Below, piece by piece: positions 23,432-64,000 of a DNA stretch of 64,000 nucleotides. Made by a program: the position numbers and the translations under genes. Source of the DNA: Eledone cirrhosa (Eukaryota); contig OZ024743.1 of assembly GCA_964016885.1 (NCBI GenBank), forward strand, positions 20,398,001 through 20,462,000. The letters run 5' to 3'. The notes below the pieces were generated by a model. The model searched no databases, was not told where the DNA came from, and saw only the letters and a list, made by a program, of their open reading frames with translations. Position 1 is the stretch's first letter. Each line of letters begins with the position of its first letter.

Positions 23432-23507
<76 letters not shown>

Positions 23508-23645
23508 AAGGTTAAACAAGGTTCAATTAATAAATCAAAGAATTAGTTTTACAATAGATTGGAAGCACTCAACAGTAATGGTTTTCCGGAGTTATTGATA
23601 TTAATTCAAAATATTAACAAAAATAGAACTTCTTGTGATCAAGTA

Positions 23646-23712
23646 TATTTTATTATACATATTTCAGAGGTACTGAGCTATCTTCAACAGTACGTCCTCG
23701 TCAGATAAAATA
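23646..23712 (-). ncRNA. type I hammerhead ribozyme motif (PLE pLTR)
   Basis: Reverse complement TATTTTAT-CTGACGA-GGACGTACTG[loop]CAGTACCTCT-GAAA-TATGTA-TA-ATAAAATA: intact core, 8-bp stem I, stem II, near-palindromic minimal stem III. Confidence 0.85.
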
Positions 23713-25752
23713 AGATGATGCATGACATACCCTGACTTAGTAGATGGTTAAGATTCAGTCATGGTAGTGAATAAGATATGACAAAACTGAATATTTATAT
23801 ACCTTAAGATTGAGACATGAAAAAATTACATATAATACAGAGGGTGCGTGTGAGAAAGCTTAAACATACATAATAGCAATTTACATAACTGTTAGAGATT
23901 CAAATAATTTAAATTATTGAAGAGAGAAGAAAGACAGAGAAACAGATGAGAAAAAGATAGTTACTAGAAGTATAGAAAGCAAAAGAGAATTGATCAAGGA
24001 TAGAGAGACAAGGAGGAATAATTTTTACAGTTTAAAGCATAGGGAGGGAGATTTGTATTGTCGTGGATAAATAGCGTGTGATTAGATGATGCTATATATA
24101 TATATATATAAATACATAAATATCAATTTGGGCATAGCTTTGTGAGAGAGTAAACTCGAATCTTTGAATTATCTAGAAATAATCAATCAATCTAAATATT
24201 AAATATATCTGGGTTTAATTTATATTCCTTAGTTAATTAGAAATATACTAACAATTAACTATATACATTATATATATCCAAACGTATTCAGATGACCGTT
24301 AAATTTCGAATCATTTATGTTAGTTCAGAATAATGAATTAATCTAAAGGTATAATATTTCAGGCTATAAATGTTTATAAGTATTTATATTAAAGTATACT
24401 ATCATATTTAATTTATAAAATCATATTTAAAGTATTTGCATAATGAGAAAGAAGAGACTTAATATTTTCATCCTCTCGAAGGTAATCCATATTAAATTAT
24501 ATAAAAAAAAAATTTTATATTAAAAAAAATGTTATATTAAAAAAAATTTTATATTAAAATAATAATCATTATATAATTTAGAAAGTAATTACAGTTATAA
24601 CTTAAAAAATTTAAAATTAACAGTTAGAATGCCCTAAAGTATCTAAAGGCCTTATAATTATACTTAAAAAGGGTATTATTAAACTAGATATACGCATTTG
24701 TCTAAATTTATATAAAGAATATATTGTCTAAAGTTCAAGACGATATTAGTCATTTATACACAATATAATATAATATAATAAATAAGTTACTCTTAATATT
24801 GTTAAAATTGAGGTTTTAGATCAATTATTATATTAGGATCATGTAATACATATATACTATAAATATACAAATCAAACTTCATGAATCATAAGGATAAGAA
24901 CCAGATTAAAAATAAATAATTAAATGGTTTGCGATCCTAGAAGTGCCAAATATCTAAGCTGTATAATTTAAAAATACAAGAAAATTTTTAAGGATCTATA
25001 TTGTAGTATAATTTCATATTTAAAGTGTCTGCAAACATGAGAAAGAGAAAACTTAAGATTTTCATCGACCCGAAGGTAACCCGAATTTAATTATATTAAA
25101 AAATAATAATCGTTATATAATTTAGAAGATATTTAACAATTATAACACTAGAATGTCCTTAAGTATCTAAAGTACTTATAAATGTAGCTAGAAGCATATT
25201 ATTAAACTAGATATACACATTTGTCTAAATATATACAGAGTATTCTGTTCGGAACTCAAGACAATATTAGTGATCCATATACATATAATAAATAATAAAT
25301 ACAATCATTATTAGTAAAGTTATAATTGAAGTTTTACATCAAGTTAAGTGGAAAAGGTTTGTCAACTAGGATCGTGTGCGACGCATATACCATAAATATA
25401 TATAAATATATAAATCAAACATCCTGAATCTTAAAACCAACATACTCCAAATGAATAAATACATAAATACATGAATGGTTTACAGTTCCTTATAACTGTT
25501 AACCATATAAGCTATATATTTTTTAAAATACAAGAATCCCGATCAAATTAAATGTAGCTACACAATCAAATGATATGCATATTCATCAAGATATCATGTT
25601 AACAATCTATATGTTTATATATTTATATAGAACCCTTAATCTAAAATTAATCATATCATAAATGAATAAAAATTATTATAAGGTTTTATAATCTGTTATA
25701 ATATTTTATACACTCAGTTGATAAGAAACGTCAAAAATTAGAACCTATTTAT

Positions 25753-26169
25753 TTAGTGTTTTTTCCTGACTTTTTGCGAGGCTTGGATAGAGGAAGCTTT
25801 ATGAAGGCAATTTGAGAATAATTCACTTTTTTTGTTAATTAAATTTTCATAATTAGTAATTATTAATAGGGTCTCTATAGTACAAAGATTGCAGTTAGGC
25901 GATATTGAAGAATTCAAGTAGATTCGACTATTACACAGCTTCGACCAAGAAATCGAGAATTTAAAATTTTTGTCTTTTAACGACCATATAAGTTGTGATA
26001 AAGAAGTCGAAGATTTCCTATTAGGATTCGAAAAAGAACATTTGTGATTCGAAAATCTTAATTTAAATGTCGATGAAGTTGCACCAATATAGTTGTATGT
26101 GATGTTATTTGCTTTTACGGTGCATTTATAGACCAGATTGCTATCCAGACAATTATTTTGCAGAGGGCA
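25753..26169 (-). pseudogene. 5'-truncated PLE GIY-YIG endonuclease domain (open frame, absent from ORF track)
   Basis: Manual translation CPLQNNCLDSNLVYKCTV...YNYIGATSSTFKLRFSNHKCSF...TSLSQLIWSLKDKNF...CNLCTIE...LINKKSELFSNCLH...KKH*; homologous to ORF 63419-63880. Confidence 0.9.
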
Positions 26170-26299
26170 CCCTCTGTATTATATGTAATTTTTTCATGTC
26201 TCAATCTTAAGGCATACAAACATTGAGCCCTGTCACATCTTATACACTACCATGACCGAATCCTAACCATCTACCAAGTCAGGGTATGTCATGCATCAT

Positions 26300-26358
26300 C
26301 TGATGAGGATGCACTGGTGAAGACAGCTCAGCACCTCTGAAATATGTATAACAAAATA
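26300..26358 (+). ncRNA. damaged hammerhead copy (5' strand of stem I deleted)
   Basis: CTGATGA...GAAA-TATGTA-TA retained; a 10-nt deletion (TTATTTTATC) removes stem I; several T>C changes in stem II. Confidence 0.6.
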
Positions 26359-26548
26359 TACTTGATCACACGAATGTCTATCTTTGTCAATATTTTGAAT
26401 TAATATTAATAACTCCGGAAAACCATAGCTGTGGAGTGCTTCCAATCTAATGTAAAACTCATTCTTTGATTTATTCATTGAACCTTGTTTAACCTTTAAA
26501 TATCTATATCTATATATATGTATATATGTATATATATATACATATATG

Positions 26549-26586
<38 letters not shown>

Positions 26587-27114
26587 AATGGTTTGTATAT
26601 TTCTAATTAATTAAGGAATAGAAATTAAACCCTTATAGTTACACCCAGATATATTTAATATTTAGATTGATTGATTATTTCTAGATAATTCAAAGATTCG
26701 AGTTTACTCTCTCACAAAGCTATGCCCAAATGTATATTTATGTATTTATATATATATATATATATAGCATCATCTAATCACACGCTATTTATCCACGACA
26801 ATACAAATCTCCCTCCCTATGCTTTAAACTGTAAACATTATTCCTCCTTGTCTCTCTATCCTTGATCAGTTCTCTTTTGCTTTCTATACTTCTAGTAACT
26901 ATCTTTTTCCTCATCTGTTTCTCTCTGTCTTTCTTCTCTCTTCAATAATTTAAATTATTTGAATCTCTAACAGTTATGTAAATTGCTATTATGTATGTTT
27001 AAGCTTTCTCACACGCACCCTTTGTATTATATGTAATTTTTTCATGTCTCAATCTTAAGGTATATAAATATTATTCCAACCATCTACTAAGTCAGGGTAT
27101 GTTATGCATCATCT

Positions 27115-27181
27115 TATTTTATCTGATGAGGACGTACTGTTGAAGATAGCTCAGTACCTCTGAAATATGTATAATAAAATA
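27115..27181 (+). ncRNA. type I hammerhead ribozyme motif (inverted pLTR copy)
   Basis: TATTTTAT-CTGATGA-GGACGTACTG...CAGTACCTCT-GAAA-TATGTA-TA-ATAAAATA. Confidence 0.85.
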
Positions 27182-27224
27182 TACTTGATCACAAGAAGTT
27201 CTATTTTTGTTAATATTTTGAATT

Positions 27225-27278
<54 letters not shown>

Positions 27279-29221: not shown

Positions 29222-32200
29222 CTACAGGCTTATGTAAAGAGAAGGCCCATTCACACGGGCCATTCTCGCCACTTTCACCCACCTTTCATAAAAACGACTG
29301 GGGTGCAGCACCTCTCTCTCCATCCTGATCCTTCTTCCGAAATGATATCGGAAGAAACGGACCAGTTGTTGGCCAGAGAGAAAGGTGCCTGACCTCAGTC
29401 CTTTCAGACGCGTCCACCATACAACCTCTTTCGCCATGGCTATTACGCACAGAAACACCGCCTCTGCTTCATCTTTGAAGGGGGGAGGCGGCTTGATCAT
29501 TACAATAGACTCGGTGGTCAACCGGATCGGTCCCACCCTTGACAGCAGTTGTTCGACATAGCCCCACAGATCGGCTACGCCCGAGCAGTGTACCAATGCG
29601 TGTGCAACGGTTTCCTCGTCGCACACGCATCTGGGACAGATCTTTTTGGCGGGGTCCCTACCCGGGCGCCCGTGTCTGTAGAGCCTTTCTCGAACGGGTA
29701 AAACTCCTCGGTAGCACTGCCAGGCCAGGGACTTCTGGAAGTTGTCCATAGGTCCCGGGCTGAATGTCCTACCGAACAGGCTGGCCAGTTCGTCCTCCTC
29801 CATGTCTAGGGCTTCTCCGAGGGCGTCGTCGCACCTGCTGCGTACCAGCCCTCTATAGAATGTTGCGGTGGAGTCTCCACTGATAACCGGATCCGCCTGC
29901 CAGAGGGCGGTGAGCGCCTGGGCACACTCAGTGTGCTAGGCGCCCAGTTTTCTCGGTCTTTGCTTGACCCAGGATTGCAGCTCGGTGAGTGAGACGAGTC
30001 TGGGAAAGGTTCGTCTCACAAACGAGGCCCACACCGGTTGTCCGGTGAGGAATACGTAGAGGTGCCGTAGCCTTAATGCGTGTTTACGCATCATTAGCCA
30101 CGGCATCCCCAGCCCTCCTTTCGAAGGGTGTTGACAGCAGATGGATCTCCTCACCATAGGAGCCCGCCTCTTCCAAAGGAATTGGAAGAGCGCGCGCTCC
30201 ATCTTGGTGAGGGTTTCCCTTGGGCAGGGCACTACGGTCAGGCGGTAGTAGATGACGGACGCTATGTAGGTGTTCGCCACCTCCGCCCGACCTTTCAGGG
30301 ATAGTTTGCAACTGGCCCACTTCTGGGTCAGTGCAAACACCCTGTTCGTAACCTCCGCCCAGTTTTTCTCCACCTGGAGGTCCGGTCCGAACCAGACCCC
30401 GAGCAACTTCACCGGGCCCTCCGTCCAGCGTCAGACGACGCCATCGGAGGGCATCGGTCTGCCCCTCCACGTGCCGAGTTGCAAACCGATCGACTTGTCC
30501 CGGTTCAGCTTAGCCCCTGTGAACTTTTCGTACTCCTCCAGTAAGGTGCCGACCGCCTCGATTTCGGAGGCCGTCGACACCATTACTGTCACGTCATCGG
30601 CGTAGGCCGACACCGCTTTCCGCAATCCCGGTTCCAAAGGGATGCCCTGCAACAACTCCAACTTCCGCAGTAGTGGCTCGAGAGTCAACACATACAGAAG
30701 GGAGGAGAGAGGGCACCCTTGTCGGATGGACCGCGCGATTTTGAACGGCTCCGAGAGGTAGCCGTTCACCTTGACCCTCGAGCAGATGCGGCTGCTGTGC
30801 ATAGCAGTGATCCAGCCCCTGAAAACGGGTCCGAAGCCTGCCGCCGCTAGCACCGCATCCAGGTAACCATGGTCGACCCTATCGAACGCCTTAGATTGAT
30901 CCAAGTTGATCAGAGCCCCGCCAAAGCCGGGTTCGTTCCCAACCCTCTCTATGATGTATCGCATGAGGTGGAGGTTGTCATGGATGGACCTGGACGGGAT
31001 AGCACATGTCTGCGCATCTCCCACCAGGTTTCCCACGACAAGCGCCAACCTCTTTGCTAGCACCTTGGCCAAAATCTGTAACTCTGTATTTAGCAGAGTT
31101 ATGGGCCTGAAGTTACTTATTTCGTCCCCCTTGTTCTCGTCCTTCCTCACTAGCGTGACTACGCCCTTGGTCACAGTACAGGGAATTCTCCCGTTCTGTT
31201 GCCAGTTGCAGTAGACCGCCTCGAGGAGATCGGGGAACAAGTCCGGCATAGCTAGATATAATTCGTAAGGAAGACCATCGAGACCCAGGGATTTGCGTTT
31301 GCCGCATTGGCTCAGCACGTCCTCTATCTCAGCGGCCGAAATCGGCTCCTCGCAGGACTTCGCCTCCCTGTCCGAGAGGCGCGGCAGGCCGTCGAGGTAT
31401 GGACCGAAGTTCACGTTCCCAACCGGCTCCCCGCCCCTCCCGAACAGTCGGGCAAAGTGCCTTTGAAAGGCCTCACACATCTGCTTAGGCTCAAGAATCG
31501 CCCGTCCATCCAGGTCTCGCAAAGACTGGATGGTGGATTTAGTTCCACTGTTGGCCTCTGTCACGCGGGCCCAGCTAACAGCTTTGGTCCCCTCGTTCCC
31601 TAGAGCACGTATTTTACTTCGGACAACGCAGCCTTCGTGCTTCGCGTCGAAAAACTGGCTCAAAGCCGTTCTCGACGCTAGCACTCTGGCCACGTCGCCG
31701 CTTCTAATTGCCTCTTCTACTCTATCTATTAGCTCCCTTTCCTTGCTATTCTTATCCGCAGCTAGAACCTTACTAAATTCTATCGAGACTACTCTAATCT
31801 CTCTCTTTAGAGATACCCACCACCTGCTGTTGACGATCGCTCCAGTCAACCGTTCCTTAACTAACGTACTAATCCGATTCCTGTAGGCTCTACTTGCCGG
31901 CAAGGACAAGTTGATCTTCCAGTAACCGGGGCCCTGTCTATGAGTTCTGTCAAGGTTGACCATGCAGGTCACTAATTTGTGGTCTGAATAGCCAACCATG
32001 CGCATTTTTGGACAACTTAAAAAGTCCTTATCCTTAATTCTAACTAAGAACCTATCTAGGTACGACCTAGATGATCCGCTACGATTTGCCCAAGTCCAGG
32101 TTGGCGCAGTCGGAAAATCTAGTCGATATCTATCGGCCAGGTCAAATCGACCGATTAACCCTTTGAGGCTATTACACCCCTCTCTATCGGGGCAGGCCCC

Positions 32201-32659
32201 TATGTAGTCCCAGCGTGCATCTAGGATACCATTCCAGTCCCCCACTAATAGCAAGGAGTGGGACGTCCCTAGAAAAGTCTCCAGACGGTGGAAGAAGTCC
32301 GGCCGCATTGACCCGAAAGGGCCGTAGGCGGCTACCAACCTAAACGCTCCGCCTTTACCACTGCCAAGGTCCAGAACCACTAGTCGACCCTCCGGGTCCA
32401 AATGTACCATCAGTGTTGCGAGACCCAGATGTTTTTGCAGCAGAACGACAACTCCACCCCCACCTCCGGGCTGACAGAGAGATGCGTGCATCTCAAAGTC
32501 ATCAAAGGTGGGGGCCAGCTGTCGCACGTTGCTGATCCGGGCCTCGCAAATTACCATCACATCTATACGTTGTGACCTGAGGTCATTTAGAAGCATTGCT
32601 TGCTTCCAAGTTGAGCCCAGGCCACGCGCATTTAAACAGCCTACTCTTAGCATAGCCAT
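29222..32659 (-). pseudogene. LINE ORF2 (APE endonuclease, reverse transcriptase, C-terminal Zn-binding) with two in-frame stops
   Basis: APE: CLNARGL, VGDWNG, SYLDRFL, YSDHKLV. RT: GLDGLPYE, FRPITLLN, DQSKAFDRVDH, RQGCPLS, YADD. C-terminus: CPRC..EETVAHALVHC. ORFs 30431-32683, 29936-30412 and 29222-29803 share one frame, broken by TGA (30431-33) and TAG (29936-38). Confidence 0.95.
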
Positions 32660-32683
32660 GTTGGTGGTGAAGAGAAAAGGCAC

Positions 32684-34474
32684 TTACCTCTCTGCGTCCC
32701 GGGTATCGGGCTGCACAATTTCCATTAGGGTGGGGGATGGGTTGTTGGGTGGGGTGGTGGTTTGTGGAAGTGTGGGGGCATCAGTGTGTTGTGTGGTTGG
32801 GGAGCTTGGAGTTGTGTGGGTGTTTGGGGAGGGGGTGGGATAGTTTTTTAGGAGGACGCGGTTAATGGGCCCGTGGCAGGGGGGACCCACGTCCTCTATA
32901 AAATTGTTTTTTAAAGTTTTATAGGTGTCCTGTGGGGCCTTAATCATTTTGAGGTGGGGGAAATCCCCTGCCTGGGTGAAGTTAGGCCCTTGTGTTTTTA
33001 TTAGATTGTTGTTGTACACAATGTTTAACAGTTTTTTGTTTCTTGTATTTATGTATGTGTATGCATGTTTTTGTTTTTGTGTGGTGTTTTTTGTTTGCTG
33101 TTGTGAACTCTTTTGTGTTGGTGTCAGTGTTATGTTTTGGGGAGGGTTTTTTTTCATTTGTGTGTCTGAGGTGTGTTTTCTTTTTTTTCTTTTGATTGTG
33201 TGGAAGTGCTCCTCCTCGTCTGACGACGAACTAGGGTCATCTTCCGCGTTGGAGGGGAGGGGTATATTTTCGGGTTGTGTTTGCGGTACGGGTGTTTTGG
33301 AAATTGTTTTTGTTTTTTGAGTGGAGGGGATGGGTTGGACATTGTTTTGTTTTGGTTTGAGCTGTGGTGGTTGTTTTTGTAGTGGTAGTTGTGGTGATTG
33401 TGTTGGTTGTGTAGTTGTTGGTGGTGTAGGCAGGATTGGGGTTTTCTTATTAAGTTGGGGACAGACAGCCCTCAGGTGACCTCTGGTTCCGCAGAGGTAA
33501 CACGAGGGCCGTCTACCCTCAACGGTAATGTTGATGAAGGTTAGATCATCCAGTATGACGCGTTCAGGGATCTGGGCGATCCTTTCGGGCCTCATTTGAA
33601 CTACAAGTTCGAGGCTCGTTCCACTGAACGCGTCACCCGATGCCTTTCCCATGGACACCAGCATGTCATCCTCCAGGTCCAGAAAACCTGTCAAAACCCA
33701 CCATATGTCCATAATCGGCAGGATGGTGTGGATTTTTATTTTTTGTGTTCTTCTACCCATGTACGTAGGGTAGAAGGTGTATGCGGTGGATGTGATTGGT
33801 TTGATGGACAGTTTCACTGCTGTGTCCCTGTCCTTCATGAGAATGGATAGACTCCCGTAGAGTCTATCCTTCTGAATGAAGGTGATGTCCTTCATGACGT
33901 CTTTTAAAACCAGCTCTATCTCGCTCTGTGATGGTTGAGCTGGTTTTTTACTTTTGTTCGAGATTGTCCTAAACATGACCGTGTTTAGGAGTCTCTGGCT
34001 TTTTAGTTCCGGGGGGGAATGGATTGTGACTGAACCATTTTCTCCGTACACTATATATTTTTTCGCATCCACCAGTAGCTCCTTCGCTTTTGTTATATCT
34101 ACTGGCAGATAGTCGAGGGTTTTCCTTGTCGTCTCGGCGAAGGAGAAATTTTGTTTGTTTGTGTTGTTGTTGTCGTTGGTGGTGTTGTTGTTATCATTGT
34201 TGTTGTTGTCACCGTTATTGGTCTTGTTGTTGTTGTTATTGTTATTGTTATTGGTGTTGTTTTCGTCCGTTGCATTGTTGTTGTTGTTGCTGTTGCTGCT
34301 GGTTCTTTGGGTTGTTGCCATGGCAACGTCAAGTTGTCGGTTAACAGGTGGAGAGAATTCTTCCTCTGGCTGACCTTTCTTCTTGACCTCTGCTACTGTG
34401 ACAGTGGCAGGGGGAAGCTGTAAGTTCATCTTCCCCTTTCCTCCTTCGAATTTTGGTGAAGAAGCTTCGGCCAT
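32684..34474 (-). CDS. LINE ORF1 protein (596 aa; poly-Asn tract, CX2CX4HX4C zinc knuckle, P/Q/T-rich tail)
   Basis: Intact ATG-TAA frame; CYLCGTRGHLRAVC knuckle; lies directly upstream of ORF2. Confidence 0.88.
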   Translation of the reverse strand: MAEASSPKFEGGKGKMNLQLPPATVTVAEVKKKGQPEEEFSPPVNRQLDVAMATTQRTSSNSNNNNNATDENNTNNNNNNNNNKTNNGDNNNNDNNNTTNDNNNTNKQNFSFAETTRKTLDYLPVDITKAKELLVDAKKYIVYGENGSVTIHSPPELKSQRLLNTVMFRTISNKSKKPAQPSQSEIELVLKDVMKDITFIQKDRLYGSLSILMKDRDTAVKLSIKPITSTAYTFYPTYMGRRTQKIKIHTILPIMDIWWVLTGFLDLEDDMLVSMGKASGDAFSGTSLELVVQMRPERIAQIPERVILDDLTFINITVEGRRPSCYLCGTRGHLRAVCPQLNKKTPILPTPPTTTQPTQSPQLPLQKQPPQLKPKQNNVQPIPSTQKTKTISKTPVPQTQPENIPLPSNAEDDPSSSSDEEEHFHTIKRKKRKHTSDTQMKKNPPQNITLTPTQKSSQQQTKNTTQKQKHAYTYINTRNKKLLNIVYNNNLIKTQGPNFTQAGDFPHLKMIKAPQDTYKTLKNNFIEDVGPPCHGPINRVLLKNYPTPSPNTHTTPSSPTTQHTDAPTLPQTTTPPNNPSPTLMEIVQPDTRDAER

Positions 34475-34752
34475 TTAAAAAAAAAATATTGACTTTTCAA
34501 CAAGAAAAAACTTTTTTTTGTTTAACTATTTCGCCTAAAGGCGTAGAATATTTTGAGAGACTGACCAGATCAAAGTTTGACCTGGCAGTCCCTCTACAAA
34601 ATGGTACAAAAATTAAAGTTATCAGACAAGAATTTCTATAGAAATTTAAACAGAACTTACCCAGCAAGTTATACGCGTGTGTCCATCCCAGAGATAGAGA
34701 TAGATAGATGCAATATATTAACAAATGGAAACTATATTTATAAAACCATATT

Positions 34753-34818
34753 TATTTCATTATACATATTTCAAGGGCCACCAAGGCAAACTATGGTGCG
34801 CTTTCATCAGATAAAATA
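34753..34818 (-). ncRNA. type I hammerhead ribozyme motif
   Basis: Reverse complement TATTTTAT-CTGATGA-AAGCGCACCA...TGGTGGCCCTT-GAAA-TATGTA-TA-ATGAAATA. Confidence 0.82.
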
Positions 34819-35164
34819 TAATATAAGTTAGTTTTATAAATAAATATTGACATACCCTGAAAAAATGCAACCATTCTGGTTGGAATCTTCTTGATAGTGG
34901 GGTTATTAGATTTATTGTTGGTTCATTATGCAAATTAGTATCGGAAAGGTTTAAATAACAGTATATTTAAATTATGTCGTCTTATTTTTTTTCCCTATTC
35001 CAACGGCTTAATTTAAATATACTGTTATTTAAACCTTTCCGAGACTAATTTGCGTAATAAACCAATAATAAATCTAATAACCCCACCATCCAGGAGATTC
35101 CAACCAGAATGGTTGCATTTTTTCAGGGTATGTCAATATTTATTTATAAAACTAACCTATATTA

Positions 35165-35230
35165 TATTTTATCTGATGAAAGCGCACCATAGTTTGCCTT
35201 GGTGGCCCTTGAAATATATATAATGAAATA
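35165..35230 (+). ncRNA. type I hammerhead ribozyme motif
   Basis: TATTTTAT-CTGATGA-AAGCGCACCA[TAGTTTGCCT]TGGTGGCCCTT-GAAA-TATATA-TA-ATGAAATA; 8-bp stem I with one G-U pair; palindromic stem III. Confidence 0.85.
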
Positions 35231-35360
35231 AATATGGTTTTATAAATATAGTTTTCATTTGTTAATATATTGTATATTTACTCCAATAATTTGTTGAGTG
35301 TTTTATATCAGTTATAAAAATATTTTGCTTGTTGTATCCCAACAAATTAAATATAACCTC

Positions 35361-40990: not shown

Positions 40991-42035
40991 TATATATATA
41001 TATATATGTATACCATCATCCTCTAATGGCCTATTTTCCATGCTTGCATGGGTTAGATGGGTTGTCTACACTATGAGGCAAGTCTGACCATTTAGCTGCA
41101 CCATGCCTTCCTCATATGGCAGTCTAATTTAGCTGGGGGCTTTTATAGCTGGATGGCCTTCCTAACACCAACCACACTCATAGTGTGGAACTGGGTGGTC
41201 CCATATGAGAGGGGTCTTGCCAATTGGCAACACCGTATGCTACTCAAGTAAACAACATTTCCAAAAGCTCATTTATAGTAATTCAACTGTGGTTACAGTT
41301 ATTTTCTGCATTTAAGATTTCTACATATTCTAACAATTTCAAATCTACCCAATGCTCCAATAGTTTATTTTCAAAATGTCTAAAAAATAGTATAATTGCA
41401 ATATTTCATACATACATAAGAAGCATAAATCAATCGGTAAATTGAATATTTGTCATATTTTGTATTTGGTAAAAATGAAACTTCTTTTCTTTGCACTGGG
41501 AAACTGTATAATTTAAAATAAAATCTATCCATAAAATACAATATTTTTCAATTCAAGCCAGGTTGCGCTTGAGTGTTACTGGTGACATGTCACCAAGTCA
41601 CATGGTTGGGTTGCTAGTGACTAAACCAAACGAAGCTTGCTTGGTGAGGAGGGTGAATTTTGGACACCCCATAGGATGAAAAACAAAACCTATCAGAGTG
41701 GAGGAACTTTTGAGAGTCAACAGCCATCCAATAGTGGTAGAGAGAGCTTGTTAGCCTTAGCTAGCAATATGTCTACATGGATCACAGTGATATCAAAACT
41801 AGGACAGATGGGACTCCATAGTTACCTTGGTGACAACATTTCAAGTGGCCAATGGTTTCATCCTTGTATGTATGTATATATATATATATATATAATAATA
41901 TATGTAGAAGTAAACACATTAAATTGTGTGTCTAAAATTACGAGGGTTGAAATACCACATTGGTTTGATAAATTTAACCTGAAGCAAACGGAAGATATAG
42001 AAAATAATATACAGACCATCTCAATAACTATTTCG

Positions 42036-42122
42036 TCTCTCGGACAGATAAGAAATTTAATCTGTTTCGCCCTGAAAATTGTGTTTGTAACAGATAATCC
42101 ATAGGCTTTCCTCAGCGAGAGA
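42036..42122 (-). ncRNA. type I hammerhead motif with extended stem III
   Basis: Reverse complement TCTCTCG-CTGAGGA-AA-GCCT...GGGC-GAAA-CAGAT...ATCTG-TC-CGAGAGA; 7-bp stem I, GUC triplet. Confidence 0.72.
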
Positions 42123-42533
42123 TAAGATCAAATGGAACAAACACACAACTAAAAGCCACACAAATGAAAATCTCATCTCAGGCGCTGGACGTTAGAAGTG
42201 TTGTGAGTGGGTATGCTAAAAATAATAGCCTTAATACACACAACTTATAAGATCACCTAGTTAGGGAGCCGAAATACAAATAAAATACAGAGTTACTAAC
42301 TCATATTGATACCCTGCAATTAACAAGCTTAAAGTATAGGGGTATCAATATGAGTTAGTAACTCTGTATTTTATTTGTATTTCGGCACCCTAACTAGGTG
42401 ATCTTATAAGTTGTGTGTATTAAGGCTATTAGTTTTAGCATATCCACTCACAACACTTCTAACGTCCAGTGCCTGAGGTGAGATTTTCATTCGTGTGGCT
42501 TTTAGTTGTGTGTTTGTTCCATTTGATCTTATC

Positions 42534-42616
42534 TCTCGCTGAGGAAAGCCTATGGATTATCTGTTACAAACACAATTTTCAGGGCGAAACAGATTAAATC
42601 TCTAATCTGTCCGAGA
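42534..42616 (+). ncRNA. type I hammerhead motif with extended stem III
   Basis: TCTCG-CTGAGGA-AA-GCCT...GGGC-GAAA-CAGATTA[AATCTC]TAATCTG-TC-CGAGA; predicted cleavage after C42611; two extra A before stem II are non-canonical. Confidence 0.72.
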
Positions 42617-42836
42617 CACGAAATAGTTATTGAGGCAGTCTGTATATATTTTCTATATCTTCTGTTTGCTTCAGGTTAAATTTATCAAACCAATGTGGTA
42701 TTTCAACCCTTGTAATTTTAGACACACAGTTTACTGTGTTTAGTTCTACATATATTATTATATAATGCTCAGTATTTATACTTTGAGCTTGTTAATTGCG
42801 GGGTATCAATATGAGTTAGTAACTCTGTATTTTATT

Positions 42837-63418: not shown

Positions 63419-63880
63419 TTAGCTGTATACTTTATGGAATGTTCTGTGGAATGTATGCAAGCAGAGAGAAAACAAGTCAGTGCGTCTATTTATTATAGAA
63501 TCTAAATTAGATATAATAGTAAATTTCTCACATAAACAGAGATTACATGTCTTGGATAGAGAGGCATTCAAGTATGGAGAAGCAGAACAAACCTTCCTCC
63601 AAGAGATGTTATAGTTAATATTTTTGTCTTTCAAGGACCATATGAGTTCTGAGAGTGCCGTGTTGGTTCTTTTAAGTTGGTATTTAAAAGACGAATGATG
63701 ATTATAAAGACGAGCTTTAAAGGAGGTGAAAGTGGAGCCAAAATAGGTGAAGGAATTGGTGTCAGTTATAACTTTACATTCATAGATTAAGTTTTTTTTA
63801 AGACAATGGTTGCTGAGAGGACATTTATTTTTAACAGGGCAATTACAATTGCGATTAGAGAAATTAAGAGTTATTAACAA
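63419..63880 (-). CDS. PLE GIY-YIG endonuclease domain with CxCx5Cx5C linker (C-terminal part of PLE ORF; apparent frameshift near 63866)
   Basis: CNCPVKNKCPLSNHC-LKKNLIYECKV...TYFGST...FKARLYNH...TALSELIWSLKD...CNLCLCEK...INRRTDLFSLCLH. Confidence 0.85.
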   Translation of the reverse strand: MLITLNFSNRNCNCPVKNKCPLSNHCLKKNLIYECKVITDTNSFTYFGSTFTSFKARLYNHHSSFKYQLKRTNTALSELIWSLKDKNINYNISWRKVCSASPYLNASLSKTCNLCLCEKFTIISNLDSIINRRTDLFSLCLHTFHRTFHKVYS

Positions 63881-64000
63881 GTGACCTAGTGTTACCTATA
63901 GAAGGAATTGGATTGGAGAAGTTATTTACGATAGGAATAATAGTTTCTTGATTTAGATTGGGATTAAGAACATTTAACGAAGTTGCGTTTGACATTGTAT

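Follow-up and report, generated by a model that had tools for sequence, protein, structure and literature searches.

An extra arm of a Penelope-like insertion in Eledone cirrhosa carries a real cluster of T>C changes, and we consider ADAR to be very probably their source. The affected copy, arm B (26167-26497, plus strand, 331 nt), is a 5'-truncated pLTR copy with a tail and lies in the window, the whole 64,000-nt stretch of contig OZ024743.1 that was analysed. All of its T>C changes fall between 26213 and 26388, a hypermutated tract of 176 bases in which 16 of the 64 T (25% of sites) have become C, which reads as A>G on the minus strand. If this interpretation is right, RNA editing was turned into heritable mutation by way of a retrotransposon.

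Substitution cluster in arm B

Arm B was compared with 39 other full-length copies by taking the majority base of each column; these copies were the best matches to arm A or B and are hence biased to low divergence. Arm B differs from this majority by 23 substitutions, 22 of them at T, and the spectrum (16 T>C, 3 T>A, 3 T>G, 1 C>T and no A>G) is dominated by a single derived class on one strand. Set against the 50 T>C among the 306 substitutions of the 39 copies, the excess is significant in a test on substitution classes (Fisher p 1.1e-7), and the maximum in any comparison copy is 4 T>C. One of the sites, 26229, is a family allele that segregates with C in 11 of the 39 copies; the remaining 15 changes are private to arm B, where 0.8 were expected (Poisson p 2e-14). 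A scan with 200-nt windows gave p 3e-10 for arm B and 5e-4, uncorrected, for the runner-up among 124 segments (94.7 kb). Besides T>C, arm B has four private changes (1.2%), a rate matched by the 29 private substitutions of long arm A over 2.66 kb (1.1%); the latter include 6 T>C and 2 A>G and form no cluster.

The cluster had been described in an earlier note from a comparison with the reverse complement of 23507-23847, as about 16 T>C changes in about 26210-26390 that made up some 14 of the first 19 or so substitutions. A three-way alignment confirmed these counts, with 31 substitutions between the two sequences, 16 of which are T>C, and with T>C at 14 of the first 19. As had been proposed, the change is polarised by the third copy: of the 16 sites, arm C aligns with 11, of which 10 read T, and the exception, 26263, adjoins the edge of arm C's own 35-nt deletion. 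The other two palindromes of the window are indeed free of such a bias (T>C at 2 of 13 and 3 of 14 substitutions), and so is the long A/C pair (4 of 19). The pLTR of arm A shows no A>G against the family majority.

Neighbour context, strand and limits of the tract

An ADAR neighbour preference on the minus strand, which the earlier note had raised as a check, is present in arm B. Fifteen of the 16 changed A follow U or A on that strand, vs 21 of the 48 unchanged A in the tract (p 4e-4, or p 8e-4 when site 26229 is left out), and none of the 13 A that follow G was changed (p 0.027). The changed A display no preference for G on their 3' side. According to the available text of PMC5625713, upstream G is depleted in hyper-editing across animals, and the downstream G preference is weak in octopus, where hyper-editing is very high; the neighbour pattern of arm B fits the one reported there for invertebrates. 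An APOBEC-type signature is absent from the arm (0 G>A, 1 C>T). Genes with an adenosine deaminase domain were located at three multi-part loci in the genome and may encode ADAR, ADAT or ADAD.

The element lies on the minus strand, running from its ORF remnant (26169) to its tail (23507), and the plus strand of arm B is the element- and hammerhead-sense strand. The changed A therefore lay on the strand antisense to the pLTR. The edited strand had previously been taken as the PLE-sense one, an assignment that has to be reversed for arm B, where the minus strand is antisense.

At in-tract rates, the absence of changes from the 20 T of the first 46 nt (26167-26212) has a probability of 0.003, and that from the 37 T of the tail (26407-26497), the part that is absent from no-tail arms, has one of 3e-5. 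The final 18 nt of the predicted duplex, which hold 9 T, are free of edits as well (p 0.02). These limits match the shape of a hairpin between a tail and a no-tail arm, a duplex that is itself predicted, and the local partner, arm A, is without edits. The first 46 nt may have formed the unpaired loop of a donor hairpin; this fit of the left limit depends on an assumption about a partner arm that is not seen.

ADAR can deaminate dA in an RNA:DNA hybrid, a reverse transcriptase can misinsert G opposite U at low dATP, and error-prone polymerases, among them pol eta, whose motif is the W-A context, can fill gaps. In one of these ways, the changes might have arisen on the first cDNA strand of an arm B that was primed normally, which would produce sense T>C on one arm without any donor and would agree both with the W-A context and with the concentration of differences at T. 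But the tail, which is copied first, is spared, motif scans turned up no further copy with sense T>C, and a sister insertion (see below) indicates that RNA-level editing has reached DNA in this family. Moreover, the T transversions of arm B stand at background level (3 private vs 1.2 expected, p 0.13), and this lack of a significant excess argues against an error-prone DNA polymerase, given the spectrum expected of such an enzyme. We regard an origin on the cDNA as distinctly unlikely. Very unlikely, too, is that ADAR directly deaminated A of the DNA strand in a germ-line RNA:cDNA hybrid with the tail shielded by the element protein; if true, arm B would be a relic of DNA editing that an RNA editor carried out in nature.

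Anatomy of the insertion

Three arms make up the insertion. Long arm A (23507-26169, minus strand) comprises tail, pLTR, 3' UTR and a C-terminal ORF remnant, of which the endonuclease-like part (25753-26169, minus strand) was assigned from its motifs, and is not hypermutated. Arm B is fused by its 5' end to the cut end of this ORF. The junction (26161-26176) is unique in the assembly and contains a 3-nt microhomology (26167-26169), which is part of an inverted repeat of 7 bp whose loop measures 2 nt. A (TA)n-rich microsatellite (26499-26582) separates arm B from arm C (26597-27225, plus strand), the no-tail inverted partner of arm A, which is unedited.

Arms A and C have ten minority alleles in common, two of which occur in no other sampled copy, and arm A has a tail where arm C has none. 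They thus represent the ordinary pair of the insertion. Arm B belongs to another template lineage than A and C: it differs from arm A at 8 of 28 polymorphic columns, and this, together with its second tail and the unique fusion, identifies it as an extra piece from another template. Pairing of arm B with the left pLTR, that of arm A, had been suggested as the setting of the editing; this is at odds with these 8 columns, with the variants that A shares with C, and with the unedited state of both.

Arm B ends exactly at its tail, next to the (TA)n tract, and 40 of 49 distinct ends in the family share the next five letters. Insertions of this family are often head-to-head, one arm carrying a 91-nt tail and the other ending at the base equivalent to 23598. 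Among the first 100 listed matches of a 25-mer on G000:C1, there are eight inverted pairs 77-252 nt apart, five of them spaced 171-183 nt, and short hairpin insertions are thus frequent.

Several further features of the family and the window were observed. The nearest relatives of the long arm (23507-26169) shift along its length, which suggests a recombining, mosaic family. Four near-identical copies about 100 kb apart (L016, L017, L018 and L020; G000:C1:217.3-217.6 Mb) suggest a large tandem segmental array. Two palindromes of the window, 34708-35275 and 42002-42652, are near-perfect, with arms of 273 and 313 bp, and the former bears the hammerhead-like core and belongs to a related family.

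Element identity and ribozyme

The element shows several traits of the Penelope type, namely inverted or tandem pLTRs, 5' truncation, a tail at one end and microsatellite targets, as in the available text of PMC8557442. A sibling copy has a frame of 477 aa. We take it to contain RT-like motifs, followed by a cysteine linker and endonuclease-like motifs, an order that would suit an endonuclease-bearing, Neptune-like element, in which one ORF encodes RT and then a GIY-YIG endonuclease. Searches of Pfam and PDB returned no significant match to the element ORF. On the minus strand of the window, two other elements were seen: an endonuclease-like ORF remnant of another Penelope-like family (63419-63895), and a LINE (29222-34474) in which an ORF1-like frame of 596 aa and an endonuclease/RT frame of 750 aa, the latter matching RVT_1 and Exo_endo_phos in Pfam, are followed by further frames.

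By inspection, the pLTRs of arms A and C appear to contain a hammerhead-like core with an 8-bp stem I (8 of 8 pairs) and a palindromic helix III. A type I hammerhead with a short palindromic helix III is the architecture described in the available text of PMC4209133. Rfam gave no hammerhead match at E up to 1. In arm B the type I hammerhead-like motif, read by eye at 26289-26358 on the plus strand, retains its core letters at 26300-26306 and 26339-26342, and only 4 of the 8 pairs of stem I.

Editing had been proposed to have damaged this ribozyme copy, and T>C changes do fall within the motif, at 26312, 26332 (stem II) and 26352 (stem I). The loss comes mainly, however, from a 10-nt deletion after about 26297 that removes the 5' strand of stem I. 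The identical deletion, between short direct repeats, is found in an unedited copy of a different lineage (L164; G000:C2:220.05 Mb). The damage to the ribozyme of arm B would therefore be mostly due to a deletion unrelated to editing.

Privacy of the C alleles and support from reads

The earlier note had allowed for the C alleles defining a widespread subfamily, and no such subfamily was found in the assembly by similarity search, 14-mer or motif scans. Among the 40 of 3245 candidates that were scored, the closest other copy is 90% identical to arm B. A 14-mer of arm B has 31 genomic matches, all of which were fetched, and arm B is the sole family member among them. Three more T>C motif scans of the assembly returned arm B only, and a fourth had no matches; an unedited 25-mer of the family has 867 exact genomic matches. 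All three other copies with the tail haplotype of arm B are short hairpins with different flanks and boundaries, and they have T at the sites that they cover. A C-rich subfamily, or chance accumulation, could draw on the allele segregating at 26229 and on the similarity search having scored only 40 candidates, but it is contradicted by the 14-mer, by the exhaustive motif scans and by the Poisson probability of the private sites. Within the assembly we regard it as close to refuted.

In sequencing run X1, an exact 60-nt contig spans 26382 and 26388 at a depth of 14.5, a combination that is unique to arm B in the assembly. The same run holds an exact piece at the 5' end of arm C (depth 11.3), likewise with a motif unique in the assembly. 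The former contig lends weak support to 2 of the 15 private sites and may depend on the assembly. No depth was obtained over 26226-26309 (runs X1-X4 at 95%; X1 and X5-X7 at 98%), and 13 of the 15 private sites are without reads; this gap is uninformative, as rare variants are lost from simplified contigs and the three RAD runs reach only a small share of the genome. At most 35% of the words of the 64-kb stretch occur in the runs.

The lack of a run across the tract core is what would leave room for an assembly or long-read error in the inverted repeat. Such an error should nevertheless be highly improbable: two much tighter palindromes and arm C are unbiased, the changes respect a neighbour context and do not enter the tail, and the X1 contig is exact, with two C alleles in cis. 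The sister insertion, whose oppositely oriented arms bear the same edits, speaks against it as well.

A sister insertion with the opposite polarity

A screen of the assembly for A>G motifs, in the direction of the genome-wide one suggested earlier, yielded one further edited insertion, of opposite polarity. Of two A>G motif scans, one returned this insertion and the other none, and 124 + 68 aligned segments contained no further cluster below 1e-4 except an arm of the same locus. The motif scans detect only copies edited at the chosen sites, and no frequency by polarity is obtainable from them.

The insertion (L157:3077-5028, that is, G000:C2:412,453,576-412,455,527) is head-to-head and belongs to the family of arm B. 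In the common region, sense-strand A>G changes number 32 in the tail arm and 33 in the no-tail arm, 29 of them present in both, and the tail has A>G at 1 of 26 A. G is depleted upstream of the edits (p 0.015), and a rough alignment of the long arm counts about 116 A>G over 1.1 kb. The same edits on oppositely oriented arms are hard to obtain from sequencing error; they indicate that one edited sense RNA templated both arms. The polarity at this locus (sense A>G) mirrors that of arm B (sense T>C), and these scans yielded no other edited insertion.

Proposed origin of arm B

We think it fairly likely that arm B was captured by a template jump onto an edited antisense hairpin RNA. A single sense RNA without edits would have served as template for both A and C, with priming from each DNA strand, at the tail start for one arm and at the no-tail start for the other. 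A hairpin insertion elsewhere in the genome would have been transcribed through, so that the tail arm was transcribed in antisense and folded onto the no-tail arm. Read-through RNA from the tail side would be paired solely between the truncation point of the partner and the no-tail boundary, and ADAR would edit only this paired part. The cDNA of arm A, ending in the ORF, may then have jumped at the 3-nt microhomology onto the unpaired part of the edited RNA, and the element RT would have copied the antisense arm, placing C opposite inosine. The partner arm of the donor hairpin would never have been copied. We infer that one arm only is edited because arm B came from this second RNA and its partner was left behind.

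The jump covers the polarity and the limits of the tract; it would also explain why arm B has a tail of its own and a haplotype foreign to A and C, and why a single arm is edited. Its hairpin substrate is supported by the many inverted partners in the family that end without a tail at the 23598-equivalent base; the junction microhomology in its favour measures 3 nt only. No donor was found in the assembly: the junction motif, searched with 2 mismatches, matches only itself, and no other copy has the flank or the C alleles of arm B. The flank at the 5' end of arm C has no second occurrence there either. The available text of PMC5224506 reports that ADAR1 did not edit L1 RNA in cultured human cells, which counts against our proposal, as do the unedited final 18 nt of the predicted duplex and the opposite polarity of L157. 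Of the original idea that edited RNA was reverse-transcribed into the genome, the pairing with arm A has to be given up, while the private and one-stranded changes, their ADAR context and the mirror case of L157 speak for the rest.

The main rival, which accounts for most of the same facts, is a second-generation copy. ADAR edits would first have been fixed in an earlier hairpin, and arm B would be a tail-primed sense copy of it or the product of a DNA-level transfer. No antisense template is required in this case, the sparing of the tail is also covered, and the end of arm B at its tail beside (TA)n is that of normal insertions (the 40 of 49 ends given above). We nonetheless hold it to be unlikely, as no donor with the C alleles was found in the assembly and the 5' end of arm B is fused by microhomology to the ORF end of arm A, which ties it to the event that produced A and C.

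Other candidates were rejected. The locus L101/L159 as donor has variants in both of its arms that arm B lacks. It includes an inverted tail arm (L159:6264-6604; G000:C1:347.417 Mb) whose start base is identical to that of arm B, a coincidence or a truncation hot spot. Fold-back copying of the cDNA of arm A is not compatible with the absence of arm A alleles from arm B. Gene conversion of A by C is contradicted by arm C, which has no tail and has a deletion absent in A. If the editing had taken place on RNA transcribed from the locus as it stands, C would have paired with A more stably than B (-942 vs -491 kcal/mol, a difference driven by length), and both A and C are unedited.

The effect at the locus of arm B is probably nil, as it is a dead 331-nt fragment. 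If the jump onto edited RNA is right, the edits can be used as barcodes to follow how Penelope elements insert, a pathway that is poorly understood: L157 would record two arms from one sense RNA, and the arm B locus three arms from two RNAs of opposite polarity. The number of templates and the template strand would then be testable from genome sequence alone.

Comparison with known systems

Searches of an open-access library returned no description of ADAR-edited copies of Penelope or other non-LTR elements fixed in a genome. ADAR-type hypermutation recorded in DNA has been described for avian retroviruses, according to the summary given in PMC12925331. In those cases too, a reverse-transcribing element has A-to-G changes clustered in its LTR or inverted repeats and recorded in DNA. 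Unlike them, arm B belongs to a non-viral Penelope-like element in a nuclear assembly and is changed at 25% of the tract's sites; editing hit the strand antisense to the element and is confined to the inserted extra arm.

As far as their available text goes, APOBEC-edited LTR retrotransposons (PMC4866542; PMC2873906) likewise show one-directional, strand-biased clusters that are polarised against a family majority. Those changes are G-to-A on cDNA, whereas here they are A-to-G in an ADAR-type context, and the element has no true LTRs. ADAR hyper-editing in animals, in the available parts of PMC5625713, shares with arm B the dense A-to-G clusters, the upstream depletion of G and the inverted-repeat substrate, but it was seen there in RNA reads only, and here the cluster is in genomic sequence.

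The anatomy of the insertion is largely that of Penelope-like elements in the available text of PMC8557442 and PMC11167929, with an inverted truncated copy at the 5' end, a one-sided tail, AT-rich targets, two RT start sites, extension of both DNA strands and a hammerhead in the pLTR. The one-sided tail is documented for Penelope-like insertions in PMC8557442, and the two start sites with two-strand extension for the Penelope protein in vitro in PMC11167929. Tails of 30-40 nt are given in these papers, and here the tail has about 91 nt. Arm B departs from them further as a third arm from another template, and the available parts of both papers make no mention of editing. Scars of ADAR type and of APOBEC in DNA are thus already known, and it is the antisense polarity that constitutes the new aspect here.
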